A stretch of 64,000 bases of DNA from Psilocybe cubensis (Eukaryota), in the NCBI GenBank assembly GCA_017499595.2, contig CM038999.1, forward strand, positions 4,216,001 through 4,280,000, given 5' to 3'. The position numbers and the translations under genes were made by a program. The stretch's first letter is position 1, and each line of letters begins with the position of its first letter. Of this stretch, positions 27,736 through 62,383 are shown one piece after another. Below the pieces are notes generated by a model that saw nothing but the letters and a program-made list of their open reading frames with translations, was not told the DNA's origin and ran no database searches.

Positions 27736-27799
27736 GGGAGCGAGCACCGAGCGAAGCGAGGTGCGAGCGACTAGTTTAAACTGTGAGTTTGAAGATAGA

Positions 27800-28460: not shown

Positions 28461-28571
28461 TATTTAATCCAATGTGTTGCTTGTAAGTAGATGTTTGTTA
28501 CTTTGTAGCAAGGAATACTTACGGTTAGGGTTTTTTTCTAATGCTTTACGCCTTGCACGCTAGTATTCTTT

Positions 28572-29377
28572 TCATCGGTTGTAAGATTTGGATATTCTGC
28601 CAAATTCTGGATGTTCCCTCTCTTGTGAGATTGAACGTCTATGAAGTATTATCTTGTTATCACTTTCGATACTTATCTGTTCAGCAGCTTCAACTAGAGC
28701 AGAATGATAAGTTTCATTAACGTTTTGAGTTTCGGGAACAACACCACCTTTTTCGGCAATGTCTTCATCCAGTTTACGAAAAACTGTTTTCTTCCACACA
28801 TTTGCAAGGTCGAAAAGATTAGTATTGCGTTTTTGCGATACTATCCAACGACTTCCGAGTAGTCCTATCTTCCTCAAATCCGGTACGAACTCAGTTTCTC
28901 CGTCCACGAGGATCTGTGTGAACAGCTCCGGGCGAACATCATCGAGGTCGTGAACGTAATTTGGATCTGGTTTGATAAGGGGTCTGGACGAGTCTGCACT
29001 ATACAGACCTTTCTCGGCATGTTCATACCATGCCAACCAGTACTCGGTAACAGTCTTTCCAAGTTCAGCAGCTGAAAACCAATTCCATACCTGGTCAAAT
29101 CTGGTTTTAAGTACAAGAATGGATTCGTCGTGCTCTGCAATTCGTAAAGCGAATCGCTTTTCCCAACGTTCTTGTATATTCTTCTTACACCAAGACATTA
29201 CTAGGTTTTCGGGATAGCCGCGCACCAAATAGAGAGCGTTAAGGTCTCTAATTGCTCCTATGTAGATTTCCTTAGTACTACACAACACGGCTAGCCTGGA
29301 TAACTCTCCAATGTAGACGCCACGTTTGACGTCCAAAGGATGATGTGATACCCATGGAACTTGTTCTCGGTTGTTTC
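28572..29377 (-). pseudogene. C-terminal (thumb) part of a Penelope-like reverse transcriptase; catalytic N-terminal part missing
   Basis: VPWVSHHPLDVKRGVYIGELSRLAVLCS...LYLVRGYP matches the PLE S.HP..K....E..R....CS...RGYP signature. No GIY-YIG motif visible downstream. Confidence 0.8.
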
Positions 29378-30560
29378 CTAGGCTTATTCCCCCCTGAAGG
29401 GGGGGCCTTCGTTGCATTGGGCCTCCTGTTCAGAAATCCTAAAATCTGATGCCAGATTCGGATTCCTGGACCCCAAAAACCCCCAAATACACTTTCAAAA
29501 TATTTTATTTTGTACATACGGAGGTGCTACGTAATTAAATGTGTAATTTATGGAGGCCGGCCTCCAAATTGATGGAGGCCACTGGAGGCCGGCCTCCGTC
29601 TAAAAATAACTTTTGACAGGCACTGGAGGCCGGCCTCCGTCTAAAAATAAATTTTTGACAGGCACTAGAGGCCGGCCTCCCGCCTGTCTCCCGATGCCAG
29701 TGCTCGCCGTCCCAAAGCTTGCGCTCGCCGTCCCAACGCCAGCGCTCGCCGTCCCAAAGCTTGCGCTCGCCGTCCCAACGCCAGCGCTCGCCGTCCCAAC
29801 GCTTGCGCTCGCCGTCTGCCCGACGCCTGTGCTTGCCGCTGCATGTTGTTGCGCTGCCACCTCCGGGCCGCTGCTGCTGCCGCCACCTCCACTCGACGCC
29901 TGTCGTTCAGCCGTCACCGCGTGTCATCCCGCCGTCGCCGCCTGTCGTCACGACGTCACCGCGCGTCGTCCCGCCGTCGCGTCTAGTCGCCGCCCACCAC
30001 AACACGCACTCTGCTGCGTGTTGTTGCGCCGTCACACCGGACCGCCGCTGCCACTGCCGCCTTCCCTCGCCGCCTGTCATTCCGCCGTCAGCGCGTGTCG
30101 TCCCGCCGTCGCCGTCTGTCGTTCAGCCGTCACCGCGTGTCATCCCGTCGTCGCCGCCTGTCGTCACGACGTCACCGCGCGTCGTCCCGCCGTCGCGTCT
30201 AGTCGCCGCCCACCACAACACGCACTCTGCTGCGTGTTGTTGCGCCGTCACACCGGACCGCCGCTGCCGCTGCCGCCTGCCTCGCCGCCTGTCATTCCGC
30301 TGTCAACGCCTGTCGTCCCGCCGTCGCCGCCTGTCGTCACGACGTCACCGCGCGTCGTCCCGCCGTCGCGTCCACTCGCCGCCCACCACGACACGCACTC
30401 TGCTGCGTGTTGTTGCGCCGCCACACCGGGCCGCCGCTGCCACTGCCGCCTCCCCTCCCCGCCTGTCATTCCGCCGTCGCCGCCTGTCGTCCCGCCGTCG
30501 CCGCCTGTCGCTGCCGCCGCGCTGCCTCTACTCGCCTCCTGTCGCTGCCATTTCGCTGTT
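29378..30560. mobile_element. Repeat R copy 1: hairpin-ended Helitron/Helentron-like terminus, GGAGGCCGGCCTCC palindromes and GC-rich minisatellite
   Basis: CTAGGCTTATT-C6-TGAA-G7 start. The first ~250 bp are shared with 39941 and 49608. Right boundary approximate. Confidence 0.65.
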
Positions 30561-30788
30561 TTGTCTTTGATACACCTTGGCCTTGCTGTACTGTAATTTT
30601 GTTAGATTTTTTATAACTAGTCATCTTACCCTGATATCAACTTGTGTATATCTCACGCGAGCTCTCTTGTGTAGACACCAAAAAATAAATTTATATGACA
30701 TTTTGAACAAAAAAACACGCATATATCTACATATTTTTGTTAGAATGGGCTATTCTTAAATGAAAAAACACTTACATTGACAATGTAA

Positions 30789-33700
30789 CTACAGGCCTGG
30801 GCAAACACGATAAGTTGGCACCACCGGTACGTGCCCGTTGACAAAGGCCTGAGCTCGTTGAGACGCTGCCGCCAGAAGCTTCCTACTGGGAGGAGTGCCG
30901 CGCAATATTGATTTCCATTGCACTCTTGTTAATGGCTGGGCCTGCCGAGTGCGGATGTCTTCTACGCGTTCACGGTACCATGCCTCGTTGGCAGGCGTCC
31001 ATTCCACCCATTGTGATCCGTTCATGCTGGGGGGCACCTGCCACAGGTTCGGGGGAGGGAACCACGATTTTACAGTTATTTGACCTTTAGTAGCTGAGAA
31101 AAATGTTGTTAGTGCATAAAATTGAGAATAAACAAGGAAAACATACCTGTGTACAGCGTGTAGGTGCCGCATATAATGGACAGCTCGTTCTCCGTGAGCT
31201 GGTCGTCGCAATAACACCAAGTCGTGTCGCCAGCTGGCACGATGAACCCCTGCCGGTTCTGAATGATTTCCTTAGAGGGGCCAGCCAGCCCATCGTCGAC
31301 GCTCAGAAACTCACTGGCTATCCTACCCACCAATCCACCCCTCAGCAAGGCAGCCCGACCGTGTTGTTGGTGTTTGATGATGTTCTCGCATTGCAATCGG
31401 TATGCTTCGAAGTCATCAACGCCAAATTTGTACGCTGACGGGCGGACAGATCGAGGGGTGTATGGCTCCTGGACAGTGGAGCAGCGACCCGACATTTCAA
31501 TGCCCATGAGAGTGCGACAGGGCACACCTCTCTCCAGCAGCATTTTTGTGAGGGAGTCGATGCGAGCCCAGGAGTGCTCTAACCTGAGCCGACACACGTA
31601 GAGGGCGATCTCCGCCGTTTCGACACCCAACATCCACTCGTGTTCCTCTGAACGAGGTTCTGAAAAAACAAAAAGATTCTGGTGAGGGCGGTGTATTTGC
31701 GACAGGTCCAGCAGACGAGACAGGGATGTCAGGCTGTGCGTGTTGAGATCAGACAGGGCGGCCGGCATTTCTGTGCTCGCAGGCTCGATGGAAGCCATGT
31801 AAAACATGTGGATATGTTGTCGAGCGTCCAGGGCAACTTCTGGGGTAAGTAACTCTGTAAACCCAAAGGTTTTGACAAGTTCATCCCAGTCTGACGCGGC
31901 GCAGGCTGTCGTCGTTGTGCCAGGGAGGTATCCATAGGATTGGCGCAGGCATCTGACCATATCGTTGTCGGGTGTAATGGGCAGGGGTTGCACAACATCC
32001 GTGGCGGGCGCGTCCGTGGTCATCTCAACATCCGCATTTTCATCCTCAACAGATGGGCCTGGTTCCTCCATCTCGAAATCTTCGACGACGGCAGGGGGGC
32101 TCTGTTGGACCCGCGACTCGCTCTCTGGGGAACGACGTGCTCGTGGGCGAGAGCGCGTTGCAACCTCTGGGGGTGTTGGCGAGCGACTGCGCAGGCGCCG
32201 TCCTAGCGTGGGCCGTGGGGGTGTTGTGGGTGCGCGGCGGGGTCTATCTCGCGATGACGAGGGTGTCGGAACCTCAATGACAGGCGGGTTGTTTGGAGGC
32301 AAAGGGGGTGGGGAAGGATTACGAGCGGGGGGAAGGGCCGACGTTGAGGCCACCGGCGCATCGGGGTCAGGTTCAATGGTGTCGTACCAGGGTACGCCTT
32401 CCCACTCTTCCTCGGCAGGTGCTGGTTTCGGGTGCTGCCTGGGTTGTTTTGCGGGACGTACACCTCTACCGCGGCGATGCTGGCCTCTAGCAGGCCTTGT
32501 CTGTGCCTGAATGCGCTGGTCCAACATCGCGGATGCGCCTGCCAACTCGGCTGGTGGTTCCAAATCTCGACAGAGATCCCATTCGTCTGTCACACCGTTT
32601 GTCAGGGTTTCTCCAGTTTCCCCTCTTTATCTTCACAGAATTATCTTATCCTTTCATTATCTTATCAATTATCTGATTAGATAGTTTATTTCTTTCATCA
32701 CAGCCTTCTTGCTCCACTTCTTTCTAGTAAATTCTATATGATTCCTAGTCTTACTCATCCTTTTTCTATATGATGTCACTTTTATTCTTTAACCTTCCTT
32801 TATGATGTAATGTAGAGAATATTCTAGAATAGCTGTAGAGTATAAATACTGGACTTGTAGGTAGCTGTAGCTTCAGCTTCAATCTCTTAGCATATCCACT
32901 ATCATTGGTGTGATCTCTTAGAACCATTAAATCTCTCTCACTCTCTTATTCTCTCTTTGCTCTCTTACTCTCCCTCTGCTCTCTCTCTTTCTCTCTTGCT
33001 TAATCTTTGTTGGTGGCCTTGTCACACTGATTATAGTGTTGCCCTAACACCGTTGTAGACCTTGCGGTGTGGGCGAAGTTTGGCCTCCTCGATGCTGTTT
33101 CGTGACGTTGCGATGTGTTCGCGCATGTAAACGCTGGCTCCCTCTGTGGACACCAGCGTTTTCCAGACAAATACTTTGCTACGTACCACCGATGGGTTGT
33201 TCTCTCGGTTCAGGCGAGCCTGTCTAGCTTCTGGCGTCTCTTTGGCCAGAATCCGTCGCCGTTCTTCCACCCTTGCAGCCCAGTAAGCGTCCCAGTCATC
33301 GTGCACAGAGGTCAGCAGCTTGTGGTTTTCATTCGCCAGTTCGATCATGCGCAGCGTAGGCAGGTTGGCGCTGTCAATGGCGAGCTGACGCTGTTCCTCG
33401 TCTCTCTTTTGGAGCTTTTTTTCCAATTCTTCATATGGCTGGGACATGTGCTGATCCAATGCCTCTGAGTTGTGGGCGAAATCGTTACTGAGGATAGAAT
33501 ACACCAAAGTAGTGGAGTACTCATCTCCCAGCGACTTCATCGTGAGGCCCTCCGTCGAATGAGATTTATTAAAAAATTTGCGCGCAAAGGCGGCTGCGAG
33601 AGACACGTCCATAGACTTGAACAGGTCGGTAAGTGTTGCCGCCAACAAGTCGCGCGGGGGGCGAAGCTCGAGATTGAGTATTTTGTGGGTGAGGAAGATT

Positions 33701-34536
33701 TCCTCTTCCCGCATCCGCCACGGATAATAGACTGGAACATGGTGTTCCAGAAGCCATTCGATGGGAGGGCGTGTCGCGTGGGTGCTGCTCAACTCGTAGA
33801 CCATGCCGACACGAGGGGTTCTGGCGTTAAACGAAAATACGTTGGAATGATACAAGCCATCCAGCCATACTTCTGAGATGTCAGGATGCTCAGCGCGGAG
33901 GCGTTCATGCCATGCAGGGACGGGGCTTTTGGGATCGTGCTTGATGTGCTTTGAATAGATCTCGCGACGACTTTGGGCGACGAGATACGACAGGTAGCCC
34001 ATCCACAGGATAAACGCGTTTCGGGTGGCCTCAAAGCTCCTTTGCGCGTCTGCTTCACAGCTATACCTGAGATCATAACCGAAGCTTTTGGGGCTAGGAG
34101 GTGGGGTTCCAGGAACGCGACACCATAAGCGGATCTTTTCACACAGAAGGGTGATGTTTTCATCCAATTGGCGCCATTCTTTTACGCTGTGCCACTCCAT
34201 TTCATACGTGGCCGGAGACTTGTGCGGTTTATTGCGCAAAATCTTTGGAGACCAGCACAAAAAATTAAACGGCAAGGACACGAATGATGGCGCCAAGGGT
34301 ATGAAGGCGATCCACCTGTACTGATCGTGCCAGCGCACTGGCTGTTTGACGCCCTCTAAATCCAGGTCTCGTCGCCGAGGTTCTGCTCGTGTCGCCTTTT
34401 GTTCGAAGGGGTTGGTGACGTCGACCTCAGCGGGTGGGATGATGACGACACGCTTGCAGTTGGGGGACACGTATATGGTGCCCTTCTGGACAAACGCGGA
34501 CCCTTGGGCCCAATCAATGTGGGTTTGCTGGGACAT
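30789..34536 (-). pseudogene. Large (~1080 aa) agaric hypothetical protein gene interrupted by a solo LTR; intron 31146-31094
   Basis: Removing 32600-33049 plus one TSD fuses the ORFs in frame (KVYNG-VTDEWDLC). C-terminal motifs GRAALLRGG, DD.LTENE..IICGTY, SWFPP..W...WTPANE.WY. Confidence 0.75.
32600..33049. mobile_element. Solo LTR (450 bp)
   Basis: TGTCAGGG...CCCTAACA termini, perfect 5-bp TSD CCGTT (32595-32599 and 33050-33054), AT-rich with TATAAATA. Confidence 0.9.
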
Positions 34537-34637
34537 CTGCAGCAGAGTAAGTAACAAGCATATGTGGGCAACGAACGTGAACACTTACGGTGGGGGCAGA
34601 GCAGAACGGTTAGGACGATGGCGATGGCCTTAGATGG

Positions 34638-35155
34638 CTGCAGAAGAGATTCTGCAGTGGCCTCAGATCGCTACAGAAGATCTTCTGTAGTTTTCAGAGG
34701 TCGGGGGTGTTGGTGTCGGTGGACGCGTCTGGCAACAAGGGCGGAGGAGAGAGCGAGGGTGGCTACAAGCAGAACGGTTGGGATGATCGGGATGGATCCA
34801 GATGCCTGCAGAAGAGCTTCTGCAGTCGCCTCAGATCACTACAGAAGATCTTCTGTAGTTCTCAGAGGTCGGGGCCATGGGTGTCGGTGGACGCGTTTGG
34901 AAACAAGGGCGGAGGAAAGAGCGAGGGTGGCTACAGAAGAGCTTCTGTAGCCTATCTCGGATGGTACACGCGAAGTCGAAAATGGGGGTGGAGGGAAGAA
35001 CGAGGCTGGCTACAGAAGAGCTTCTGTAACGATTCTCGGACGGCTGACGTGAAGTGTCAAACGTCGGGGCAGGGAAGAGCCAGAGTGGCTACAGAAGAGC
35101 TTCTGTAACCTTTCTGGGATGGCAGACGCGGCGTGCTACAGAAGAGCTTCTGTAG
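34638..35155. repeat. Array of ~8 copies of the palindrome CTACAGAAG-AG/AT-CTTCTGTAG
   Basis: Copies near 34638, 34671, 34806, 34839, 34931, 35010, 35089, 35136. Confidence 0.9.
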
Positions 35156-35297
35156 TGTGCGTGCGTGCTAAAGAAGGAAGTGGACTTAGCGTTGGAAGGT
35201 TGAAAAAACGCCCAGAGCGGAGTTTCAATTAATCACGTGACCGCTCGCGGGCCCTGTTGATCGCAACCCCCAGAGTGTTCCTGTTCTCCATCCACCT

Positions 35298-35787
35298 CCA
35301 AAGCTCTTTGGTCGTGGATCGCGGGCCAACAGTACCAAAGCTCTTTGGTACTGCCTAGCCCATCCTCCTCCGTGTCGCACCCCCCCTCACGGTGCTCTGA
35401 TCCTCAAGAGATCTCAGGTTCTATCCACCTCCAAAGCTCTTTGGTCGTGGATCGTGGGCCGTCAGTACCAAAGCTCTTTGGTACTGCCTTGTCCATCCTT
35501 CTCCGTGTCGCACCACCCCTCACGGTGCTTCGATCTTCAAGAGCTCGCTCCTGCCAATGCCCCCCCACATATCCATCCGCCTCCAGAGCTCTCTGGTCGT
35601 GGTTCCCCCCAACGCTGCAAACCAAAGCTCTTTGGTTTGACTCCACTTCGTCCAACGATTCCGTCGGCCTGGGATACGTGTGCCAGTCGACCTCCTACCT
35701 TGATTCTGTGATCGTGAGTCGATATACCCGCCTCCAGAGATCTCTGGTCGTGGGCTGTCGCGTTATCGTGCAACCAGAGCTCTCTGG
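35298..35787. repeat. Array of ~8 copies of the palindrome CCAAAG-CT-CTTTGG / CCAGAG-CT/AT-CTCTGG
   Basis: Copies near 35298, 35335, 35431, 35468, 35583, 35622, 35734, 35774. Confidence 0.88.
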
Positions 35788-36145
35788 TTTGTGCGCGTTA
35801 CACACAACCTGGCCTCCCGATATGCTTGCGCACAACGCCTTGCCGCCGTCGATTGTGTCGGGCGCGATGTTCGATTGGGACGCCTCCGGACTATCGGGCA
35901 CTCAGGTGTCTGATTAATTCAGCCCTGTCCTCTTATCGGAACGACAGTCAATCAACTATCGATCTCTTCTTTAACCCCCTATACGTCTTCTGAAGGGCAA
36001 TTGCTTGGGCCTTCCATCGCAGAGCGTAGGGCGTCGTTCTCAGATATAGATCCCTTCCACCCCCAGCATCGTTCGAGGACCTATCCTGTTCCCTTCCCTC
36101 ACCCAGACACCAAACTTCCAAACATTTTTCAAACAAAAAACGGGG

Positions 36146-39100
36146 ATGGAAGGTAAGTAGGGTGTTTTATAGCGGTTACATGTACTAACTGTTTGATTCC
36201 AGATCCATCTGAACCAGCGAAGCGACGCAGGAGGGAAACAGAAGACGATGGTGGACGTGAAGGGCGTGCGAGGCGAAAAGATAACCAGCGATCGGTCACA
36301 GTAGGCGATACAGTCGTGCCACGCAACGCCGACATGAAATTTCCGTGCACACACTGCCGCAAGGAGTACAGTACGCCCTACAGTTTACAGGTGAGCCAGT
36401 TTCCAATCTGTTTTGATTTTTCACGCTAAATCCATACTACAGCGTCACTTTGCTGATTCGCACGCAGAACCGTCGTTGGAGGTTCCCCAGCAGACCTCAG
36501 ACAACGAGCGATCGTTATCTCCACCGTCGCCGGAGCCCATGTTTCCATCGCAGCTCCCTCGCCCATCTTGGGGAGCCGCACCTCCTACAAGAGCCCCACC
36601 TCCCGCTTCACAGCTTCATCCGCCGTCTACGCGCTTGTTTCTTATCCCGCACGCTCCCCGCAGGCAAGCGTCGCCGCGTCCCTTGGGCTCGAGGGCAGGA
36701 TCTCCCCCAACAATGATTCCTGCGCCGGTAACCCCTGCGGCGAGTCGGCCATCTACGCGCACGTTTCTTGGCGCGCGCGCTATCAGCAGCCAGGGGTCGC
36801 CGCATCCGTTGGTCTCGAGCCCAGGATCGCCCCCAACGATGATACCTGGGCCCGTTTCTCCTGCGCCACTGCGCAACATATCTGCGCAGAGGATGACACC
36901 GACACCTCCGGACATGCATCAGCCACCTGCTATTCGAGCCACGCCCACCACTGCGATGGAAGTAGACATTTCGCTCTACGACATTGCACCCGATGACCAC
37001 ACAGTGATCTACGACGACGTGCACAATCTTCCGGCCCTTGGAATTGTGATCAACACTTTTCTCAAGGTTGTTATCTGCATAGAATGTGGCGAAGCGATTG
37101 AGCCGGCGTTGGTCTGCGCACACGTCAAGCAGCACAACGCACACTATACACCAGGCCCCACATTGCTCGAAGATCTTCGGCGGAAATACGGGATCGTGTC
37201 GCTGGCTGAGATAGCCTACAGCGCTGGACCAATCCGTCCGATTTTTGGGATTCCTATCGAGGCTGATCAGCTCCATTTTTGTTCCAAATGCCACCGCGGC
37301 TACAACTTGTTGTTGAGCCTGCGGGGTCACCAGTCTAACGGGCAGCGTTGCCAAGTGCCTATCACGCAGCGCGCTTGCTACACGATGTACGGGCAGATAC
37401 TTACAAAAGGCCCAAGCAAGCGTTATTTTCCAGTCGATACTTCGTGCCTCTCGCTTCGCCAGGACATTCCCTTTGCATACTCGACTGTTTTTGGAACAAC
37501 AATGCCGCCTCCACCCGATTACACACAGTTGCCCGTCCAAGACATTGAGGACCCACAAAATCTGTCCTCGTTTCTCTTCCGCGAAGGATGGCTTGACGCT
37601 GTCAAAGGGTTGACCCCTGTCGACATCCAGGAGGTTACCAGGCTACCAGACGCCAAGACCGAGCCATGGGGCAAACAACTCCAGCTCGCAGCCCATCGCG
37701 CACTGGCCAGCATCCAGCTACTGGTGAACGAACACCATACGTTCGGCATGACGCACAATATTGCTCAGTTCAATCAATCGTAAGTTTAATTGCATTAAAT
37801 CAAAGCTGATATTCACTGCACACGGTAGAAGCAACATGTTGTCAAACAATTTCAACCACATTCAACCTGAGACGCAGCAGCGATACGGAAACATTATTGT
37901 GCGGCTTATTTTCAACGTTTTGCGCACCATGGACCCCGCGTGGACATCTCCCGTGCGCTACCCCTCTCTCGACGCATCTCAGAAAGTAATTTTGCTAGAG
38001 CTACAAGCCAAACTGGATGGCGCAGACAAAAAGCTCATCGACGAGGCATATCAGAAGGCGTGCTACTCATTATTTGCACACGAGCGACGCCAGTACCCGA
38101 TCAGCTCTAAGCTGCGAAAATTCTTCTCGCCCGTCATCTTGTTCGTAGTTTTCTACTCTCTGCGCGCGAACGGGAGCTTCCGCTTGGCGTCAGAGATTAC
38201 GGGCATATGCGCCGCCGTTGAATACTGCATTCGGACGACAATGCTCTTTGAAATCGAAAGAATATCCGAAGAATCCAACGTATCGTCATTCGAGTAAGTT
38301 CCTTACTTTTTTCATGTTCATTTGTTAATATATGGTTCCTAGCGCTCTCAAAAAGGTGGAAAGGTACATCTCAACGGGGCAGGAGACGCCAATGGCGTTT
38401 ATTTACAACGTCCACCGTGTTCTCGCATCCGTGCGCTCAGACGAAGTCACCGCCTCCCAGTTTCGTTTCACGGACAAGAACGGAAGAGAGGTTAGCTGCA
38501 ATGGCCACCTCATATCTCTATCGATGATCAAGAAAATGCACGACGAGGAGCATGTTCGGTATGAGAACATGGTGCAGGATCGTCTCTTTTTTGGCGAAGA
38601 CATACCCAGCGATCTCTTCCCTGAACTCGACCTCGAGAGCATAGTCAACAGCTCCAACAATACATCTGCTGGCTATTGCTTCCTGGACGACCCTCGTAAC
38701 AATTTTTCTGCTTATCGGGACTCTTACGGACGTTGGTTGCTCTCCGACCCTGTGCGAGCCCAGCGTTTCGTTTATATGCATGAAGGCGAACTCGTTTGGA
38801 AGCCTTCTGCCGCCCTTGACCTATTGCGGCGCATGGAACGCGTACGCGAGGTCCTAGCGCCGGGGGTTTCCTACTCGACTCTTCTGCAGGTTCGGGGGTC
38901 GGAATTTGCACGCGCGTTACTCAGGAACACACCCGCAGCCCTACGAAACCTGCGGTTTGAGATGCACTTGCTGGCGCACGTTGCGTTGCAGGACAAGACA
39001 TCGCATCTACATCTCAAGGATCGCCACATTCCTCACGTCATTACCCGCGAGTGGGCAGAGTCCCTCATCCGAAACCTTGCTGTATTTCGCCCGTTTGAAG

Positions 39101-39940
39101 AAGTTCTGGTGGCGAAATTCCTCAACCCCGAAGCACTTCATCGCTATCGCGTTCAGCTTTGGCCGGGCATCAAATCGACGATGACGTCTGAGGCATTCAG
39201 TGCTCGATGTGGCAACATGACAATGCGCTATCTCCTGCAGCCGTTCAAGCCTCTTCGCTGGCGCTCTCTGATCACGGCGTTTGCGCGTTTCTTGCCGGAT
39301 TCTCGCTCATACGAGTCGCAAAAGGAGTTTTTTGTCGACACGGCCATGATGCACTCAACGGCGATGAGCAACAATCGATACGGGCGACATTCTGACCAGG
39401 CATCGCAGTCCGACTTTCGTACAACCATTGGGTGCATCCAGGCCGCTTTAGACATGCAGAAGCATGTTGGGATTGGACAGGCGCGTCCGTTTACGCTCAC
39501 TGTACCGTCCGAGGTACCTGAGACTTCCACTGGCGGCGCTCAAGGTCAGTGGCATAACTAGACCGCAATTTATGCGTTATTAATTTTTATTTAGGAATTG
39601 TACACGACGTTAGCTCGCTGGAGCGCATAGCGCGGTCAGCTATGCTCAAAATCACAGGAAGTTTGGAGGATCGCGTGAAGGAGACCATCCTCGACTCTAT
39701 GGCGGTCGTCATGGCGCAGATTTTGCCCAAGACACCTCGTCCGCTCAACGAGAACAACCTCCGCCCTGTTGCAGACATTGACCCCCACCCCTCGCGCCTA
39801 CGCTCTCTGCGTCAATTCCTCAAGCGGCCTGCAGCGAACTTTAGCTGCCCCGAGCAGGCGCTCCTCCTGGAGCTCATGTGCCGCGGGCAGCAGAGCGTGC
39901 TGGGTATCTTGGGCACGGGCAAGGGAAAGACGATGCTAGT
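36146..39940 (+). pseudogene. Telomere-linked helicase-like gene: C2H2 finger + DUF3505-like Cys/His domain + tyrosine-recombinase-like domain + start of RecQ/SF2 helicase, truncated at Walker A
   Basis: Spliced CTHCRKEYSTPYSLQ|RHFADSH finger; ICIECGEAI..HVKQH; RGSE...DK...WR...MHS...RYG; F.CPEQ...SVLGILGTGKGKT, then repeat R. Short GT-AG introns at 36153, 36391, 37780, 38294, 39544. Confidence 0.7.
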
Positions 39941-40690
39941 CTAAGCTTATTCCCCCCCGAAGGGGGGGCCTTCGTTGCATTGGGTCTCCTGTGCAGAATT
40001 CTTGAAATCTGATGCCAGATTCGGATTCCTCGACCTCAAAAACCCCCAAATCCACTTTTAAAATATTTTATTTTGTACATACAGAGGTGCTATGTAATTA
40101 AATATGTAATTTACCGAGGCCGGCCTCCAAATTGATGGAGGCCACTGGAGGCCGGCCTCCAAATTGATGGAGGTCACTGGAGGCCGGCCTCCAAATTGAT
40201 GGAGGTTACTGGAGGCCGGCCTCCGTCTAAAAATAAAATTTGACAGGCACTGGAGGCCGGCCTCCGTCTAAAAATAAACGTGTTGAGGCCACCTGAGGCC
40301 GGCCTCGATTCGTACGCGCGTACAACACGCTAGTGGAGGCCGGTCTCCTGCCTGTGCTCGCTGCCCCAACGTCTTCGCTCGCTGCCCCCGACGCCTTTGC
40401 TCGCCGCTGCGTGTCGTTGCGCCGCCACCCCCCGGGCCGCTGCCACCTCAACTCGTCACCTGTCGCTGCCGCCGCGCCGCCTCCACTCGCCGCCCACAGC
40501 GACACGGCATTCTGCTGCGTGTCGTTGCACCGCCACCCCCACGCTGATGCCGCCGCTGCCGCCTCCCCACTGCTGCCGCCTCTACCACGCCGCCTCGTGA
40601 GTTGTTGTGTTCTGTTTGTTGCTCGACATCTTCACCGCCGTGCGCGGAGTTTGAATGTCCCTGACAACAGCAGGGACAAACAACAAGACA
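39941..40690. mobile_element. Repeat R copy 2
   Basis: CTAAGCTTATT-C7-GAA-G7, the shared core and ~31-bp tandem units with GGAGGCCGGCCTCC. Confidence 0.65.
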
Positions 40691-42599
40691 TTTGTCGTCT
40701 TCTACCACCATCTCTTTCCCAACCACTTGAACGACAACATGAACATTACAAGAGGCTGGGAATATGCAATTGGAAAGATGGGACGCAAGGTAGCAAGGCA
40801 GAGGCACAAAGCAGGGAGAGGCATTAGGTGAGCGGTTCACGTTTGATTTTTGATTTTTTTGTGACTCGAGAACACCCACAACCCTCCCCTCTCCACCGCT
40901 ATCACCCTGAATTTCCTATTATGCTGGCACATACTTAACATTGACACCGCTGCAGCTGCACAGCATCCACATACATATATGCGAGACCTTGTTGTACTGC
41001 CAGCATCGTGAAAGACCGCGACCTCAACTTGAAGAGGGGGCAATGTCTTGCCTTATTCGGCATCGAAACTCGCGGCGGTCTGGAATGTGGTGTTGCATGG
41101 CGCAGTCACTGCAAGGGGTGTTAATCATAGATAGGTTAGTGATTTGAACAACATATGACCCGCTCTGTTACTCACCGTCGTTTTCCCATCCTTCAACCCT
41201 AAACCCGCAAAACACGTCGTCTCGTTCATTTCGTCTCGCTTCACCTCCTTCGTTTTTAGTGCGTGTTATGTCTAGTTTAAATCCCTTTGTCGACCCTCTT
41301 TCTTCCCTGTCAAAAGTACCACAGTAAACAGATACCTGGTGTATACAAAGGGTGGCACCTGCAACAATGCACAGTGTAGACAAACATGAGCGGCATTCTG
41401 TGCGTGTTTCTTTTCTTTCCGCCTTTTGGTTCATTTACTTGCCGCCATGAAAACAGCCTGGACAGACTGACCAACAACGACGCAACGACGCTCATCGTGA
41501 AGGACATGTTTTGGCTGGAAAGGATGCCGGATGATGTGTGCGGTGAGTTCTTTTTCTTACACCCACACTGCCCTTGAAACCCGCGCATCCACCCAGTTCC
41601 CATCGTCTGTGTACCATCAATTCCATCTCATTTCAATCCCCATCCCGACCTTCGCTGACACCAAGACGCTCTCACCCCGAGTCGTCTTGACCTCCACTGG
41701 CACCATATCATGTAGGAACAGCGCAACCTTGAATTGCATTGTCGATACGAAGTGGTATGCCTTGTAGTTCAAGAAGATTTCAGGGGAGGGGAGATCGAGG
41801 TGCCACGCATGCTTAATGGTGTGCTGCTCCGCAAAATTGTTACACACCTGGTACACCATTAACGGTTAACGTGCTCGCCATACGAGGTAGCGAACACCCC
41901 GAGGCGATACGAGTGCATACACGCACTCAGATCTGAACATCGATGGTCTTTACAAGATGGTAGACACGTGTGGGTCTGTAGGGGGATAGACTGGATGTGG
42001 AAATGCATTGTGTTGTCGATCTTGAGGATAAGTTAAAAGTCAGCGCAAGGGTTTGAGATGGGGGAGTTGTGACGGAGTACGCATGTTTCTGGGAGATCGT
42101 CGATCGTGAGTTACTGGTTGTGTTTGTTCGTCTGTTGCTTACCTTTCTTACCCTTTCCACCTTCAATCCTCCTTCGCACGCGACTTTTCAGCATCCAAAA
42201 TTTGGCCCACCGAGACTGATATCCGCACCACTACCCAGGATAAAGGTGTTCACTAACAAAAAAAACACTTTGTGGACCTAAAAAACATGTCCCGGAGAGT
42301 ATACAGATGAACGTGCTTTTGGTAGTCAATGGTATCTACTGGATAATTCCGCCTCTTTCCTCCCTTACTTCCCCTCCCTTCTATCCCGCTCCATCTCCTA
42401 CGTGTTCCCCTCCAGATCACAACCACCTCGAAAAATCTCATCACATCGGATGCAAAGGCCCTCCATGCATCCAAAGTCGTGCGAGCGCAGGTTGTCTCGA
42501 GGTGGGTAGCGCGGTATGCTCCTCTTTCTCCGATCTTTGTCTCTTTGCATGGTAAATTCCATCTCGCTGTGTTACGCCTATCCCACTCTGTGTGATTTT

Positions 42600-44700
42600 G
42601 ACGCTCTCGTCCTACCACATCACGACAGCCTATGCATATTTACATATTGCTCACGTCTGCGGTGCACGCAGTGGGTGTTGTACCCGCTGTGGTGTATTTG
42701 TACCTGCGGTTGTATGTTTATGGATGTTTCGTTTCAGCTGTTTGTGTGCGGGTGTGAGGATTTGGGTAGGGGGGTGGAAAGTAGACAATATAAGATGGAG
42801 ATGAGTGTCATTGAATGGAAAGGCTGGAGTGGAAATAGGAATGCTGTGAGTGACAATGTAGACACCCCACCACCTGAAAAGACAGTGCCGTCCAACCCCT
42901 CTGCTTTTTGTCCACCATGAGATTTGCCTGGCCCGCGTGTTTCGACCACGATAGGTAAGATCATAAGATGCATGACGAGCGCAGCGGGGCGGTGAGTAAC
43001 CCTGTGGACAAAGATACACGACTACTCACCGTGTCCTCATCTTTGAGAGTTTTAGTACTCCTCCAGCAATGACCTGTGAGTGTGTCCGGGTCAGTGACTA
43101 GACACACCTATACGGGATTACTCACCTTTGATTGTCATAGGTGACCATGACCTGCCATGCAAACAGCGTCTCAACAACGCTATCATACGACGTGGCAACG
43201 TGCAGGCTTGCAGACCGTCCGCGGCGCTCTTGATCACGGTGAGTAGTCGTATATCTCTGTCTACAGCTATTCTGTTTCACTTAATACCCCGCTGCGCTCG
43301 TTGTGCATGCTGTATGTTGTAGTCAATAAATGCGGCGGCCGCGTCTGGTGTTCTTGTCAGGCGAATATAGCGTATTTTGCGTACGTATTATAGAGCAATA
43401 CTCACCCGCGTTCACAGCATATATGTTGATGGTGTTTGACACGGGTCTCTCTCAACGTCTGCGGTGTGCAATAAGCAAGGCAACAGGTCAGTACGTGATT
43501 TCTGTGCATGGATGTGCGCTACTCACCCTTGTTTCAAGGATACACTCTTCGCTTCCGTGACGTTGACTGGGTCTGTCTGTCCTCGACGTGCATGCTGGAC
43601 TTCTTGTCAACTTTTGTGGTGCGGTTTGGAACTGTGACGACTCTGCAGTAGCCATTCAAGGTCTGTTACTGTCTCTTCTGTAATGATATCAAATGAACTC
43701 ACCCTTGTTCTAGCCTCCTCAAATTTCTCCATCGGCAACAATGACGTCGTCACTCGACGAGCATGAGGTGTTGGACAGTGCAGCAAGGTGGTCAGAGGCT
43801 CTAATACATTGTCAACCAATCACGCCAAAGCATTCACGAATCACCGTGGCACCGCTGGAGAACAGGACAGGCAGGATGGGGGGGGGCATCTGTAATGTGC
43901 ACCGGCAAGCGTGTATCAACTGGTCGGTATGTCAGTCCGTATTCAGCCTTTAGCAATCTTTCTGCGCGGCGGGGTCCCTTATTGACGTGCAAGCTTTGCT
44001 AGAGAGTGTGAAATGCCGATTGGTGAGCTCCGGGGGTGTCTGCGCATGCAATCACATTTCGGGTACGTTAGCTCTTTTTTTATGTATTGGACAGCGTTGC
44101 TTATCTGTGTTTTAGTAAACATGTCGATGGGGTTTGCAATACGTCTCTTCTCGACGTCTGCGGTGTGCAGGACAAGGTAACAGGTCAGTACGTGTTTTCT
44201 GTGTAAAAGTGGGCGCAACTCACCCTTGTTTCTCAAGCTTTCTCTCACATCGACAGTTCCCGGCGTATGTTGCGCCCTGGACCTCCTCTGGCGCGCTTTA
44301 GACATGGACATAGCGGTTGGGTAAGTGTGGCAGTACTGCAGTAGACATTCAAGCTGTATTAGCATTTGTTCTATGCACAACATCAGACATACTCACCTTA
44401 GGTTTAGCATCTTCAAAGTCGTTGCCATCGTCGAACAAGGCACCCGGGACCCTTATAAATGTACAAGGTCTGCTGGAGAGGTTCCCGAGCCATGGAGCTT
44501 TGGAGATGGTTTGACAGATTCTTGATATTCGTGCTTTGGGTTATTCTAAGAACCTGCAATCTGTATCACAATTTCAGAACTTGAGAACTGGATTATTTAG
44601 CATGTACCTGTGTCTCATTGTGTGTTGTGTTCCAATTCTATTAAAATGCTTGAATTGAATACAAGATGAATGAGTTTTAAAGATTGCAATAAGTGCAACC
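42600..44700 (-). pseudogene. Possible decayed multi-exon gene with an internally repeated exon (HTADV)
   Basis: Many minus-strand splice donors (ACTCAC/CTTAC on +) and a repeated CGTCTGCGGTG(T)GCA at ~42654, 43457 and 44155. No recognisable family. Confidence 0.3.
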
Positions 44701-44737
44701 TGCATGAGATTTGTGCTTCAACAATTGTAACACCAAC

Positions 44738-44902
44738 ACCACAAAGCACATATTAGCTTTGGTTAGGGTTTATGGTTTAGGGTGACCACAAAAATACATA
44801 TTAGGATGGTTTAGGGTTTAGGTTTTAGGGTTGGTTGGGATTTGATATACCACAAAAGCACAGATTAGTCCGGTTAGGGTTGGGTAGGGTTGGTTAGGGT
44901 TG
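44738..44902 (+). repeat. Degenerate telomere-like repeats interleaved with an ACCACAAA(A)GCACA.ATTAG unit
   Basis: TTAGGG/TTTAGGG variants in three blocks, each preceded by the ACCACAAA unit. Confidence 0.7.
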
Positions 44903-45062
44903 GTATTTTAGCGCCCAAACCTCTCACACGCCCACTGCCCATGGCCACTCCTTCCATCCATCACCAATACCACCGCATACCCCTCCGCAGAAGTCTTGAC
45001 AGCAAAGAATTGCGCCATTGTTCGGTTACTTCTCGACCAATCGCGCATGTTCAGGCGATTTT

Positions 45063-45376
45063 GAACTTCTCCATTCCATCCCCGTCCTCATCTGGAGGTG
45101 CCTTGTCGCTGAGAATGCCTGGTATGTTACTGAGTTACACTCTACATCAGCAATACACACAATGATTTTGAATTTTCCTTATTTTCATACAGTGTTGTTG
45201 ACGAAGAACACGAACACGAACACAAACACAAACACAAACACAAACACAAACACAAACACAAACACTAAATCTAGCATGCGCAGGTGGAGGATGGTATAGC
45301 GAGGGTGGCAAGACACCCCACCCTCAACGCTGATGGGCTGTATGCGCATGTATCAGCCTTGATGTTGACGAGTACT
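45063..45376 (+). repeat. Dispersed ~300 bp repeat, copy 1 (copy 2 at ~51993-52282)
   Basis: Collinear similarity from AACTTCTCCAT.CCAT to TGATGTTGACGAGTAC; copy 1 has an expanded (AACACA)n. Confidence 0.8.
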
Positions 45377-45949
45377 TCAACATGTTCACCGCCGTGAGTC
45401 CATACGAGGGTTGTGGAGCACTCGGTTGAGTAGCATGAGGCTCAATGCAATGCCAGTGTCAACAAGAGTGTGCGCGGGGTGGGAAGCAGCATGACGTCCG
45501 TCCTGTGTCCTCTCGCCTGCCATCTCGATACACAAACTGTCACTTGGTTGAGTATCATCAGTAATGAATGCGAATATCAGCGACCGACCGTGTGGGGCAG
45601 GAAGCAGCATGTCCCCCGTTCTGTATTTCTCTTGTCTGTCTCAACACACACCATCAACGAGTTGTCTACAATGGTGCGCAAGAGTCCTTTGGAGACACAA
45701 ATTCCTTACCGTACCATATCTTCAGTATCCTTCAAGCGACGGGTGCATGCCTCCGTCAAGGCCGAGCGTCCGCACCTTTCTCGGACTCGCTCCTCAACCA
45801 CTTCAACATTTCGAATCCACACGAGGGCGGCGGAGCACTTGGTCGATGTCAACAAGCCACCACGCGGGGCAAAAACGCATCCTGTACATCCTACTATTTG
45901 ACTCGACACCCACGCCGTCACCGACTTGTCCACAACGGTGCGCAAGTGC

Positions 45950-46640
45950 GCTGCTGTGTGTGTGAGGATGGAGAGGTCAGTCTTGGCATTAAAAACCCAT
46001 GGCGGATGACTTATCTTGTGTGCACCCGACGAGGCGCAGTGTGAATGTGAGGGGCCGCGTGCCGCCATGGCTTGCAGCCTGGGACGTGTCGTAAAGAGGT
46101 GAGTTTAGCAAAAAGTAGACTTTTTCGCACCTAGTATACTGCCGCATCTTTTAGGTGTTTGATGGGGCGCTGGGATGGTGTCGGACGGTGAGCGTGGGCG
46201 TTGTTGCTGTGTGTGTATGTGCAGATGGAAAGGTGAGTCTTGGCATTAAAAGTATGACGGATTACTCACCCTCCATCATCATCGAGGGGCTGTGTGCCGC
46301 CGTGGCTCGTTCCGGCTCTTGCTCTTGTGCAAACTGGGGACGCGTCGTAAAGAGGTGAGTTAGCAAATAGCAGACTTTTGCGCACATCATATTCTGCCCT
46401 ACATCTCCCAAAGGTCGTTAGCGGGCCGCTGGGATGGTGTTGGATGGCGAGCAGAGACGTTTCTGCTCTATATGTGTAGGTTAGTCGTGGCATTAAAATC
46501 ATGACAGAGTACTCACCCTGCATTATCGTTGAGGAGCCCGTGGCTCGTTCAGTCTCTTGCTCTTGTGCAACCTGGGGACGCGTCATAAAGAGGTGAGTTT
46601 AGCAAATGACAGGCTTTTCACGTACCTAGCATACTTTCGC
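45950..46640. repeat. Three diverged ~230-250 bp tandem repeats
   Basis: Repeated GGCATTAAAA...ACTCACCC...GGGACGCGTCGTAAAGAGGTGAGTT(T)AGCAAA. Confidence 0.75.
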
Positions 46641-49607
46641 ACATGTCCTTCAAGTCGTTGGTAGAACGCTGGGTTGGATTCGGGCGGCGAGCGTGGTGTG
46701 CATCGCAGTGTGCAGTCTACACAACCCAGTTAGCCACTGTACAAACTACACTGTGCAAGACTCACCGAGGGCTGCGAATGAAAGTGGGGAACTCAGGGAT
46801 ACCCGGTCAGCTCTCCCCTCCTTTTATAAAATTCTGTACCCCTTGTATATCTGCATTAGTGTCCATGTTTAATGTCATGCTTTTCTGCCCGCAGTTCAAT
46901 GGGGAAATGTGCAAAACGACAACTTGTCGGCGCTAAGCGAGAGGTTGAGTGACATACTTGGTTCATCTTTTGCTCGATGTACATCTCCCCCTGTGTGTTA
47001 GATTTTCAATATTTGAGATTCACATGCTCGCTCTCAGAGTGTCGGCCTGAAACTTGACACTTTTGGAGTGTCATTGGTGTAGTTTCTGTTGCTCAATTTT
47101 AGGACAATGCCCGTCTAACCAAAAAACACACAGTCTGTTTTCTAGGTGTTTAATCGAGGAGAGCTGTGTATCTCCCATCGTATATTCTATTCCTGAGCTC
47201 TGTAAATCCTCTACGCAAGGGCTGATGACACACGCGTACTGGGTTATACAATATGGAGTGGGTATTTACACAGGAACAAGCTAAATTCAATCCGATTGCG
47301 TCGATCGCACCATATCGCAAGTGGAATTCAACGTGAACCACTTTCCATGTTGAAGAAATCTATGTTGCATTCCAGCATACGTAGCGCCGGATGTAAATCC
47401 GTGATGGACGGAGAATCCAGGGCTGAGCGAGAAACGAGCGTTTTGGAGCGCAGGAATTGGGAGAGTTGGGGATGGAGGAGAATGCCCTTGTCTGCATGTT
47501 GGTGCAGGTATGTTGCTGCTCTAATTTTTTTCCAGGATTCTGAGCTCGAGTTGGTCTATCTATTGCACCTCCAGCTGCCGCTCTCTAGCGCTCCTGAATT
47601 CCAGTTTTGTCTTATTTCATGCGTATTTGAGACGTTTGATGAGATATTCAAGAATCGTCAATGAGTTGAAGCGAATCTCGACCCCCTCACCTGTGTGCAA
47701 ACTCGGACTCATGGTAGCGTAATAATCCCTGTTTCAATCATTTAATTCAACTCAATTATGACGATAAACGCCGTTCTCCATGCAGAACTGCTGGGCATGC
47801 CTCGTTATGTTCACGGACTCTGGTCAGTGTTTCTTGTCTTCTCGTTTACATCTTTGCTGATAGGTGTCGTAACAATGTCCAGGAAATTCAGATTGTCGTA
47901 TACCTACAGGCGAAGCAATCGTTTGTAAACGAGAGATAGGGCAAATGGGGGATGGAGGAGGTATGGCAATCAAGATTGAGACCATCAAGTTCAGTAAGTT
48001 TTGGGAAGACTTTGTGTTTGTGAATTGATGTTCTACCTTTGACAATTTCATATAGAGAACCTTTCCGTGGCTTGGAGAGATACGACGCAAGATTTGCAGT
48101 TTTGCGCAAAGATTGAAATTGTGACATCAAGGTGTGCATCTTCAAGTTGTTGAACAACCGTCGACTATTCTTCATTCACAGAAATGGTAGTCATCACATA
48201 CCTTCTTCATTCATAGCACATACCATCTCGTACCAGGCCATTTCAGTCATCTACAAGCACGGGAGAAGCACCGGAATAACAGGGTAGGCTTTTCGTGCCT
48301 TCAATCTCGAATCGACTAATTGTCCATCTACCAAACATTTCAGCTCACATTATTTGCCTGAGTATGGTGAGATGCTGAGATACTCAGATGAGATACAGAA
48401 GAAACGGTGTTTGGAATGGAAAATATTGGCGAAGAGGGCCAGGAGGAACAGATTGGATCACTTGGACTCCAATGTACTCTGTTGGTTCCGCCGTTGGATT
48501 TGAGGCGGCATAGTCAGTGAATGGGTGAGCTCATTTAGTATACATCTGAATGACATACTTTTACCCTGTAATTGGTTCGTTTACACTGTTTGAACAGTGG
48601 TTCAACGGCGGCTAGGCAAATATCTCGAGAATCCGGTGAGTTTTTAATTTTCAAAAAATCTTTCAATAACGCATTTAAACTTGACTCTCAGTACTACCTA
48701 TACACCCATACTGCTGGATAACAGCTAAACCGCAGGGAAATGGGATAATAGAGCAAGGTATGCCATACCCATTCCTTGATTAAATGTATATTGGCATTCA
48801 AACCTTTCGGCCAATCTCGAATGTGTCTAGTCTTCACAGAATGTCGTGATACTCGCCCGAGATGCGGGGAGAATGCGTTTTTTACGCTAGAAACGACAAT
48901 TGGAGCTGGAGGACAAGACCCGGATGATATGCATCCGCGTCTGCTCGTCATCTTTGAAACAAACCGCGATTAGCTTGGGCTGTCGATACTTTATGTGTGA
49001 GTGGCTACTTTATATTGTATTTGACTACTTAATAAGCCTACTGGGCACAGAGAACACACATGGCAAGTGCAAAATACACGAATATTGTGGAAATGACGGT
49101 TTGGGCGCTTAACGAATGACAAGTTCAAATTTTATTCAGAGGTCTTTTAAAGTATGTACCCGTCTTCTAAATACCTACTATAACAGCTTTATTACAGAAC
49201 CACTCGTATATCTCTCGGAACAGCCGCAGATTCTCTGTTTTTTGAAAGGTACACATGAGCTGGAATCTCAACTTTGGAATGCGTTGAACTCGGGCTCACG
49301 GTGATACAGCGTTGAAACATCTCGATTTGTGTATCCCCGGATGCTCTGTCTGGAAGCAGGGATGGTAGGTAGAAGCAATAAATGTTCAGAATCGCAGGGC
49401 AGGAGGAGCGGCTAGGCTTTGGCGGAAAGGGATGTCATTTTCTTTCATTAGGTTTGAATAGAGTAGTCCAGGCTCTTTACAGCTGGAATAGTGTCTATAT
49501 ACATTTAATTCGTGTCAATCGACGTGAGGTGTAAAGGTGTTTGAGAACAACATGCCCGAATTTCAATCCAAATACTTATATTGATCGCTATGTACTAGAC
49601 TAATTCA

Positions 49608-50285
49608 CTAGGCTTATTTCCCCCCGAAGGGGGGGCCTTCGTTGCATTGGGCCTCCTGTTCAGAATTCCTGAAATCTGATGCCAGATTCGGATTCCTCGA
49701 CCTTAAAAACCTCCAAATCCATTTTCAAAATATTTTATTTTATACATACGGAGGTGCTACATAATTAAACATGTAATTTATGGAGGCCGGCCTCCAAATT
49801 GATGGAGGCCACTGGAGGCCGGCCTCCAAATTGATGGAGGTCACTGGAGGCCGGCCTCCAACTAAAACGCGAGTGGAGGCCGGCCTCCCGCCTGTCTCCC
49901 GACGCCTGCACTTGCTGTCCCGATGCTTGCGCTCGCCGCCTGCCCGACGCCTGCGCTTGCTGCTGCGTGTCGTCGCACCGCCACCTCCGGGCCGCTGCTG
50001 CTGCCCCGCCGTCTCCACTTGATACCTGTCGTTCAGCCGTCACCGCTTGTCATCACGCCGTCACCGCGTGTCATCCGGCCGTCGCCGCCTGTCGTCACAT
50101 TGTCACCGCGTGTCGTCCCGCCGTCTTGTCTACTCGCCGCCCACCACGACACGCACTCTGCTGCGTGTTGTTGCGCCGCCATCCCCGGGCCGCTGCTGCT
50201 GCCGCCCGCCTCCACTCGTCGCCTGTCGCTGCCGCCGCGCAGCGGAGTTTCAATGTCTTTTGACGACAGCAAGGACAAACAAAGC
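49608..50285. mobile_element. Repeat R copy 3
   Basis: CTAGGCTTATTT-C6-GAA-G7, the shared core and palindromes. Its distal CGGAGTTT.AATGTC...GGACAAACAA is shared with copy 2. Confidence 0.65.
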
Positions 50286-62381: not shown

Positions 62382-62383
62382 GA

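Follow-up and report, generated by a model that had tools for sequence, protein, structure and literature searches.

The right-hand part of a 64,000-nt window from Psilocybe cubensis (assembly GCA_017499595.2, contig CM038999.1, positions 4,216,001 to 4,280,000 of the forward strand; coordinates below are those of this window) carries three copies of a short repeat, termed R here (R1, R2 and R3), each of which begins where the sequence to its left breaks off. Ordinary host genes occupy the window left of ~27300: a G-alpha gene, a gene for a NACHT protein and, last, an importin-beta-like gene. They are followed by telomere-like tracts, tails of terminal retroelements, a gene designated X, a telomere-linked RecQ-type helicase gene (tlh1), the R copies and a Ty3/Gypsy element (Table 1). 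A first-pass annotation, made from the letters alone, had pointed out the R copies and had proposed that they represent one end of a large, cargo-carrying element of the single-stranded DNA or rolling-circle type.

Table 1. Features of the window from the last host gene to the right edge (PLE-a, Penelope-like element tail; RT, reverse transcriptase; LTR, long terminal repeat; UTR, untranslated region).
Feature	Position	Strand	Basis and remarks
Telomere-like tract (TTTAGGG)4	27377..27404	+	directly after the importin-beta-like gene
Short tail fragment of terminal retroelement	27405..27686	-	first 34 nt with GCGAAGC-capped hairpin
Telomere-like tract	27687..27738	+	tract search
Non-coding Penelope-like tail PLE-a	27739..28404	-	94% identical to 63460-64000; hammerhead core 27842-27864, minus strand
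Telomere-like tract, mixed TTAGGG/TTTAGGG	28405..28454	+	tract search
RT-encoding terminal retroelement, 3' part	28455..29377	-	117-nt 3' UTR and codons 909-1176, cut by R1
R1	29378..30575	+	homology ends ~30550-30575, right end diverged; palindromes GGAGGCCGGCCTCC; C-rich 21/42/173/216-bp tandem repeats expanded
Gene X, three exons (34536-33046, 32605-31145, 31106-30792)	30792..34536	-	92-96% identical to the 1075-aa P0097
tlh1 (telomere-linked RecQ-type helicase)	36202..39940	+	residues 3-1186 of the 1634-aa P0005
R2	39941..40684	+	right-end module 40644-40684 in common with R3; other-strain reads break at both edges
Body after R2, no recognisable gene	40685..44725		open reading frame scan, read depth
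Degenerate telomere-like satellite, ~60-bp units	44726..44905	+	multi-copy in reads
Block cut on the right by R3	44906..49607		sequence comparison
R3	49608..50290	+	sequence comparison
Body after R3	50291..52530		sequence comparison
Ty3/Gypsy element	52531..63457	-	LTRs 52531-53604 and 62384-63457, 99% identical
Telomere-like tract, then second PLE-a tail	63458..64000	tract (to 63491) G-strand on +; tail minus sense	hammerhead core 63595-63617

Repeat-family detection and BLAST within the window placed the starts of R at 29378, 39941 and 49608, with all three copies on the plus strand. The first bases are CTAGGCTTATT in R1, CTAAGCTTATT in R2 and CTAGGCTTATTT in R3, and the common opening can be written as CTA(G/A)GCTTATT(T), with a run of C, the letters (T)GAA and a run of G coming next (C6-TGAA-G7 in R1, C7-GAA-G7 in R2, C6-GAA-G7 in R3). 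The two runs form a hairpin at 29389-29405 in R1, 39952-39968 in R2 and 49620-49635 in R3, which begins 11 nt from the start in R1 and 12 nt from it in R3. With at most one mismatch allowed, the window contains three occurrences of the motif CCCCCNGAAGGGGG, where 0.02 would be expected, and none of 100 shuffles reached that number. Pairwise comparison of the copies gives 204, 206 and 204 identities in the first 220 nt (~93%), whereas their 30-nt left flanks agree at only 9, 10 and 5 of 30 positions. Because 220 nt are conserved while the left flanks are unrelated, the left edge of R is sharp to the base. The number, positions, orientation and opening of the copies, as well as their sharp hairpin-adjacent termini, were thus described accurately in the first-pass annotation.

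On the minus strand, R ends in the GC hairpin and then AATAAGCCTAG (AATAAGCTTAG in R2), and the end lies 11 nt after the hairpin in R1 and R2, as had been noted, and 12 nt after it in R3. The last four letters are CTAG in R1 and R3 and TTAG in R2. The folding energy of this hairpin, compared with dinucleotide shuffles, gave z values of -0.2 to -2.1 as DNA and +0.1 to -1.9 as RNA, and was not significant for R1 and R3. The energy is unexceptional because the C and G runs survive shuffling, and the reality of the hairpin is best taken to rest on its conservation rather than on its folding energy. Comparison within the window revealed no target-site duplication (TSD) at any copy, the flanks being unrelated, and BLAST found no inverted match to R anywhere in the 64 kb, in agreement with the earlier remark that neither a TSD nor a matching other end is visible. 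A comparison of the right flank with the inverted left flank, prompted by GTCTT/AAGAC at R2, was not significant for R1, R2 or R3. Two common classes of repeat were rejected. A solo LTR or LTR retrotransposon does not fit a repeat that starts with CTAGG, lacks TG...CA ends and a 4-6 bp TSD, and precedes unrelated DNA; a DNA transposon with terminal inverted repeats (TIRs) or a miniature inverted-repeat transposable element does not fit one with no inverted match in the window, no TIR and no TSD. Short TIR elements with TSDs had been named as the outcome that would speak against the rolling-circle proposal; R turned out to be short, but it has neither TIRs nor TSDs. A 21-nt word of R gave no match among metagenome contigs.

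Homology among the copies stops after ~0.65-0.75 kb, or after ~1.2 kb in R1, where there are additional tandem repeats. Each copy is built from a conserved stretch of ~220 nt, units of 32 or 42 bp that vary in number and each contain the palindrome GGAGGCCGGCCTCC, and C-rich 21-bp repeats. A 41-nt end module is common to R2 and R3, and R1 carries only a diverged version of it; in this right module, a well-folded hairpin is seen in R2 alone (z -2.5, against +0.7 in R3 and no structure in R1). The right neighbours of the copies are mutually unrelated. Taken together, the comparison shows R to be a discrete non-coding module of ~0.7 kb, and not simply the end of a single large cargo-carrying element. 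The ~10-kb spacing of the copies is therefore not a repeat length, and the large element that had been read from that spacing was not upheld. No credible open reading frame (ORF) was found in R, the long frames being translations of low-complexity repeats without a Pfam match. The 14-nt palindrome GGAGGCCGGCCTCC is present in three to six copies per R at 32- or 42-bp spacing (40116-40300, 29551-29680 and 49781-49880), and its copy number differs both between R copies and between strains; such arrays could be docking sites for a protein, or a CpG-rich, promoter-like array facing the chromosome tip. Rfam yielded no match at the gathering score over the 64-kb window. At E<=10 it returned over R2 only miRNA-like matches on the palindromic repeats, with no hammerhead inside R2, and a partial hammerhead of 15.7 bits in the tlh1 flank of R2 was taken as noise.

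Both R1 and R2 interrupt identifiable coding sequences. The minus-strand ORF cut by R1 comprises 268 residues that correspond to residues 909-1176 of the 1176-aa P0016, a Psilocybe cubensis RT-domain protein, with 259 of 268 identical; its stop is followed by a 117-nt 3' UTR and then by the telomere-like tract at 28405-28454. What lies left of R1 is hence the 3' portion of a terminal retroelement, its 1176-codon ORF severed at codon 909; residues 1-908 are absent from the right side of R1 and from the rest of the window. The Pfam RVT_1 assignment of the P0016 family is a precomputed one, and a rescan of P0014 gave 26.2 bits, below the cut-off of 29.6. The ORF fragment had no sequence match in the PDB, and its weak, viral-polymerase-like feature matches in the ESM Atlas were of low recognition and were not used. 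On the left of R2, tlh1, which takes its name from the public annotation of P0005 ('ATP-dependent DNA helicase tlh1'), is 95-98% identical to P0005 and retains four short intron-sized gaps. The gene ends in GTGKGKTMLV (Walker A) at residue 1186 of 1634, abutting R2, and tblastn detected no match to residues 1187-1634 in the window. A contig of public sequencing run X10 passes this cut point and continues into sequence that translates as intact protein. At the tlh1|R2 joint, between 0 and 2 nt (CT) may be shared. A contig of run X1, 2832 letters long, covers 37139-39970 with no differences and contains words that span the joint. The left neighbour of R3 holds no recognisable gene. The cuts proposed earlier, of the retroelement ORF by the first copy and of the helicase at Walker A by the second, are both confirmed and, because neither cut gene resumes to the right, simple insertion is excluded for the two copies (of two) that can be judged in this way.

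Additional copies of R were sought in public sequencing runs aligned to positions 36000-49500 at 90% likeness. Run X13 consists of raw reads from another strain (~1632 M letters), and the assemblies hold 42-45 M letters each. Only the three window copies are placed by position, and other copies were estimated from read depth. The summed depth in X13 is ~100-140 over tlh1 and rises to 921 (450+471) at 39985 and 823 at 40059, 7-8 times the tlh1 depth, which corresponds to roughly two dozen copies of the conserved part of R in this strain. Further along R2 it falls to ~510 at 40237, ~220 at 40280 and 63 at 40564, a drop that may reflect only the divergence of the repeats at the 90% cut and not truncation. 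From 39941 rightward, 495 X13 reads match R2 with diverse left parts (consensus agreement only 0.37); among the X1 contigs, 39941 is the break point of three and 39939 that of one. The R end showed no nibbling in these reads and contigs. Behind 40684, the right edge of R2, 124 X13 reads break with an agreement of 0.57. The ~4 kb that follow R2 have single-copy word depth in X1 and are nearly absent from X13 and X6. Two runs presumed to be of RNA contained almost none of the words of this region.

The surroundings of the three copies are those of a chromosome end. The first tract, next to the last host gene, marks an old end, and the DNA right of 27377 is made up of layers added successively onto it. 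In the window search, all telomere-like tracts had their G-rich strand on the plus strand and none was found on the minus strand; the telomere repeat given for the related Agrocybe in the available portion of PMC11433599 is TTAGGG. The tails at 27405, 27739, 28455 and 63492 all adjoin telomeric repeats. In three tails a GCGAAGC-capped hairpin comes right after the tract (27405-27438, 27739-27770 and 63492-63525), the tails diverging farther in; the 3' UTR of the RT-encoding element (28455-28571) has no such hairpin. Both PLE-a tails have an identical hammerhead core (CTGAAGAG, a short stem and CGAAA) on the minus strand, at a distance of ~100-125 nt from their 3' ends; Rfam Hammerhead_3 scores it at 21.3 bits, below the gathering score. 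These features identify the tails as endonuclease-less Penelope-like elements (PLEs) whose sense strand is the minus strand, and the plus strand therefore runs toward the chromosome tip. Whichever of the two plausible LTR boundaries is taken, the Ty3/Gypsy element lacks a TSD. Its right LTR is adjoined by (TTTAGGG)5, behind which a Penelope-like tail begins; a 511-aa frame at 56774-58306, where the RT is expected, had no Pfam match at E<=0.01. This young element may have arisen by capture of linear cDNA at a chromosome end, with capping afterwards, or through recombination between two copies.

Given these observations, we favour the view that R was attached to eroded chromosome ends and not inserted into intact DNA, to which we assign a probability of about 0.65. 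It is favoured because a fixed, un-nibbled start stands on many different left flanks, the truncated sequences do not resume, the copies have a single polarity at a chromosome end, and the neighbours were reverse-transcribed; of these, the start, the truncations, the setting and the polarity can be read directly from the window and the reads. In the scheme that we propose, the chromosome would erode into a retroelement ORF or into tlh1 (as far as Walker A), so that the left neighbour of each R would represent the then-current end. The RNA of R would be the minus strand as written, ending in the hairpin and AAUAAGCCUAG, and would be copied from the free 3' end by an endonuclease-less RT, for instance that of the resident PLEs. 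The GC hairpin 11 nt from the end of the template would fix the start, as the GCGAAGC hairpin may do in the Penelope-like tails; R would be a non-autonomous passenger, and no telomeric repeat would be needed for priming. Distal DNA could then be gained by copying another R-bearing end via R homology, by joining another fragment, or from read-through templates. This scheme as a whole, with R RNA copied by a resident endonuclease-less RT from the chromosome end and the hairpin setting the start, is put forward tentatively and at somewhat less than even odds, the RNA intermediate, the enzyme, the role of the hairpin and the manner in which distal blocks arrived each being proposed from sequence features.

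Several findings are consistent with such copying. A GAA-capped GC hairpin, on the plus strand and ~4-12 nt from the joint, is common to R and the Penelope-like tails, as the first-pass annotation had recognised in likening the C-GAA-G hairpin to the PLE ends, and a hairpin-guided start gains support because the neighbouring tails have these parallel hairpins. The same stack contains products of reverse transcription, namely three Penelope-like tails, each after a tract, and a young Gypsy element without TSD, and the 0-2 nt shared at the tlh1|R2 joint fit end-primed copying. Other findings weigh against the attachment of R by an RT. A telomeric repeat is found at the joint of none of the three copies, unlike at the adjacent Penelope-like tails, and a hammerhead core in none of three against both PLE-a tails; the R joints show no trace of poly(A). 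The three copies in the window are all almost complete, whereas many retro-copies would be expected to show graded 5' truncation, and the sequence of hairpin, 11 nt and CTAG is a layout that HUH/rolling-circle enzymes also use. Intron-sized gaps are retained on both strands after R1, two in X (minus) and four in tlh1 (plus), which makes transfer of this block as DNA, or else as an unspliced RNA, probable; an RT-based account therefore needs a second step. Finally, the X1 contig over the tlh1|R2 joint covers only 30 letters of R, one letter fewer than the bridging rule requires for formal confirmation of the joint outside the assembly.

The layout of the R end leads directly to a DNA-based alternative, in which a rolling-circle-type (HUH/Helitron-like) enzyme nicks a donor chromosome end beside the hairpin at the R edge, the displaced strand, which extends from R to the donor tip, is joined to the eroded 3' OH of a recipient, and an R-led block is duplicated in a one-ended transfer. 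Helitron1 elements have a GC-rich hairpin ~10-12 nt before a 3' CTRR, and R has its hairpin 11, 11 and 12 nt from the end, with CTAG in two of three copies. Bao and Jurka (2013) described, in the available portion of PMC3627910, Helitron2 elements (CRe-1, 2, 3) in which the 3' end is intact and the 5' end varies, and a fixed hairpin end with a variable other end and no TIR is what R, too, displays. Such a transfer would also explain the exact, un-nibbled junction, the differing cargo right of each R, and the presence of both-strand genes with introns kept, long blocks being moved in one step. Other findings speak against a Helitron. The base preceding R on the plus strand is C, T and A in R1, R2 and R3, so the flanking T expected on the minus strand is present only in the third copy, as had been noticed; the A/T target of Helitron1 hence holds for one copy of three, and the flank consensus in X13 gives no A, at low agreement. 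R2 ends in TTAG. On the minus strand, the right boundary of R2 and R3 starts with (G)TTGTTTG and not with TC, and nothing right of the copies is shared beyond R in the window, so that no common second terminus is seen within the 64 kb, although a distant one may lie beyond it. The contiguous flanks of Helitron1 are not seen either, with residues 1187-1634 of tlh1 and 1-908 of the RT ORF absent to the right. As for the asymmetrical terminal inverted repeats (ATIRs) of Helitron2, the right ends of R2 and R3 each score 12 against the left subterminal 70 nt, a value equalled or exceeded in 76% and 79% of 1000 shuffles, and of the hairpins that Helitron2 has at both ends the left one is present in all three copies while the right one folds well in one (R2). 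The 5'-truncated CRe copies in that same portion of PMC3627910 have a TSD of 7-19 bp, whereas R has none and, unlike Helitron1 and CRe elements, sits at a chromosome end in a fixed orientation. No RepHel or tyrosine recombinase (YR) gene, for which co-occurrence had been suggested as a check, was present among the 105 ORFs scanned out of 197 of at least 90 aa. R moreover behaves like a short module in its own right, being 7-8 times as deep as tlh1 in reads and having, in R2 and R3, a common right boundary with differing right flanks. The RecQ-type helicase gene follows R1 only; R2 and R3 precede other DNA. Transfer to chromosome ends by Helitrons is not known to us, no literature search having been aimed at this point. 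From the rolling-circle proposal of the first-pass annotation, the Helitron-like hairpin end therefore stands, but the large element does not, and a transfer of this kind is considered unlikely.

About as unlikely is an origin of R as an ordinary dispersed non-autonomous transposon that integrated into subtelomeric DNA such as tlh1 or a Penelope-like element, the distal DNA having been swapped later by ectopic recombination or break-induced replication between same-oriented copies at different chromosome ends. The roughly two dozen copies with sharp left edges, a subset of them with a sharp right edge (the 124 reads behind 40684), are what a transposon would leave; their 93% likeness suffices for recombination, and only same-oriented exchanges would be viable, which would explain the orientation of all three copies. 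High rates of rearrangement are documented for fungal subtelomeres, with 109 new telomeric fragments in the available part of PMC7367193. Yet R has no TSD, TIR or target motif, and the original right flank would have to have been lost in both copies that can be judged. A chromosome end eroded into tlh1 could furthermore use the homology of tlh1 itself, of which depth indicates several copies, and the reciprocal joint, between the right end of R and the rest of tlh1, was not seen among the loose ends listed behind 40684.

Less probable again is a system in which R would be the start signal of telomerase-free DNA copying that rebuilds worn ends, with a nick or primer at the hairpin edge of R from which a donor subtelomere, including X and tlh1, would be copied onto the eroded 3' end. 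If it were true, tips would grow by R-led blocks, and the telomere-linked helicase blocks of fungi would belong to a mobile element that targets ends and has a defined origin. A site-specific break at the hairpin edge of R, made by the transposase of a solo transposon end or favoured by the structure of the C and G runs, with the released acentric terminal fragments, which start with R, then end-joined to eroded ends, is judged improbable: it would account for the identical first base at all joints, the C- and G-run hairpin near the edge, and right blocks that differ and can be single-copy (after R2 in X1), as a translocation would leave them, but end joining usually nibbles while 495 reads and three contigs break at the same base, translocation alone does not give two dozen copies, and the ORFs scanned in the window include no candidate nuclease. 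Mis-assembly, with the joints as artefacts of repeat collapse, is very improbable, for although R is multi-copy, short-read contigs stop at R and the X1 contig enters it so shallowly (30 letters), that contig does contain joint-spanning words, the three joints differ and yet share one polarity consistent with tracts and tails, and reads from another strain break sharply at that same edge, into different flanks.

Elements added to chromosome ends have precedents. Endonuclease-less Penelope-like elements at chromosome ends were reportedly described by Gladyshev and Arkhipova in 2007. The Drosophila elements HeT-A, TART and TAHRE, and LINE-1 when it acts independently of its endonuclease, are added to receding or broken ends without a sequence requirement, truncating and leaving no TSD. 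R resembles the latter group in truncating the prior end and leaving no TSD. Unlike these elements, which have oligo(A) ends and RTs of the long interspersed nuclear element type, R ends in a hairpin and AATAAGCCTAG with no A run, is short and non-coding, and is followed by unrelated blocks. The closer likeness is to the endonuclease-less PLEs Coprina and Athena, as portrayed in the available portions of PMC13159263 and PMC8557442: R is likewise stacked head-to-tail at a chromosome end with its 3' end toward the centromere, and shares, as proposed here, the attachment to a free 3' end, together with the lack of a TSD and the structured 3' end, and copies of such elements adjoin R. In contrast to them, R has no ORF or PLE-type RT, no telomeric repeat (0 of 3) and no hammerhead (0 of 3, against 2 of 2 tails), and joins eroded sequence that is not telomeric.

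Helicase blocks are a second familiar component of subtelomeres. Examples are the yeast Y' element and the TLH/RecQ families of Magnaporthe, Ustilago and Metarhizium. Unlike these blocks, R is also found, and much more frequently, where there is no tlh1. In Agaricus bisporus var. burnettii, according to the available portion of PMC7473861, there are 19 RecQ-type helicase gene models, nine of them likely full-length, and the multi-copy, terminal arrangement of complete and truncated copies resembles the situation described here; a fixed, hairpin-adjacent proximal edge is not described in that portion. The rearrangements of Magnaporthe oryzae MoTeR elements, as given in the available part of PMC7367193, are similar in their interstitial telomere tracts from terminal retroelements, truncations, terminal duplications of sequence from the interior and an LTR retrotransposon in the array. 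MoTeRs differ in that they insert into telomere repeats, and no short, adapter-like module with a fixed start is reported in that part.

That fungal subtelomeres hold helicase genes and terminal retroelements is known, and the arrival of new blocks there has mostly been inferred from recombination models. The joints of R are resolved to the single base, an invariant first base next to a hairpin being placed on ends eroded into an RT ORF and into a helicase gene. Should R be the passenger of an end-adding RT, the enzyme would heal ends devoid of all telomeric repeats, and the structure of the template rather than homology to the telomere would guide its choice. Alternatively, a DNA-based transfer starting from R would amount to a new mode of lengthening chromosome ends. 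R further provides a handle for dating the layers of chromosome ends and for catching new additions in long reads of ageing or telomerase-impaired cultures.

Gene X, the divergent neighbour of tlh1 in the block after R1, is one of a large family of fungal proteins, with 2148 representatives at E<=0.001, for which no Pfam match was obtained in 15 of 15 members scanned or in the window ORFs. AlphaFold models of both its domains are confident (pLDDT 88.5 and 93.2), and Foldseek found no match among solved structures at E<=0.001. VIA-align gave a best Z of 4.7 for the N-terminal domain, with helical bundles only, and a single PDB chain at Z 3.1 for the C-terminal domain, for which only this one PDB representative reached Z 2. 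An assignment of X as a nuclease, Rep protein or RT was rejected, no Pfam or PDB counterpart having been found, and the gene gives no clue to the mechanism. Its first gap (33045-32606, ~440 nt) is very long for a fungal intron and has NGV residues on both sides; it may be an inserted small element instead of an intron. The interval between X and tlh1 (34600-35546) is taken up by tandem arrays with periods of 168, 79 and 133 bp, which include palindromic boxes of the form CTACAGAAG...CTTCTGTAG.

Farther right, other copies of the degenerate satellite at 44726-44905 carry additional units on both sides. Positions 45057-45376, 5.1 kb after R2, are 75% identical to 51986-52282, 2.4 kb after R3, with an intron-like GT...AG gap, and the pair probably represents a fragment of a multi-copy gene. 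Among the host genes, two 2-kb direct stretches (13209-15240 and 18501-20517) are 66% identical to each other.

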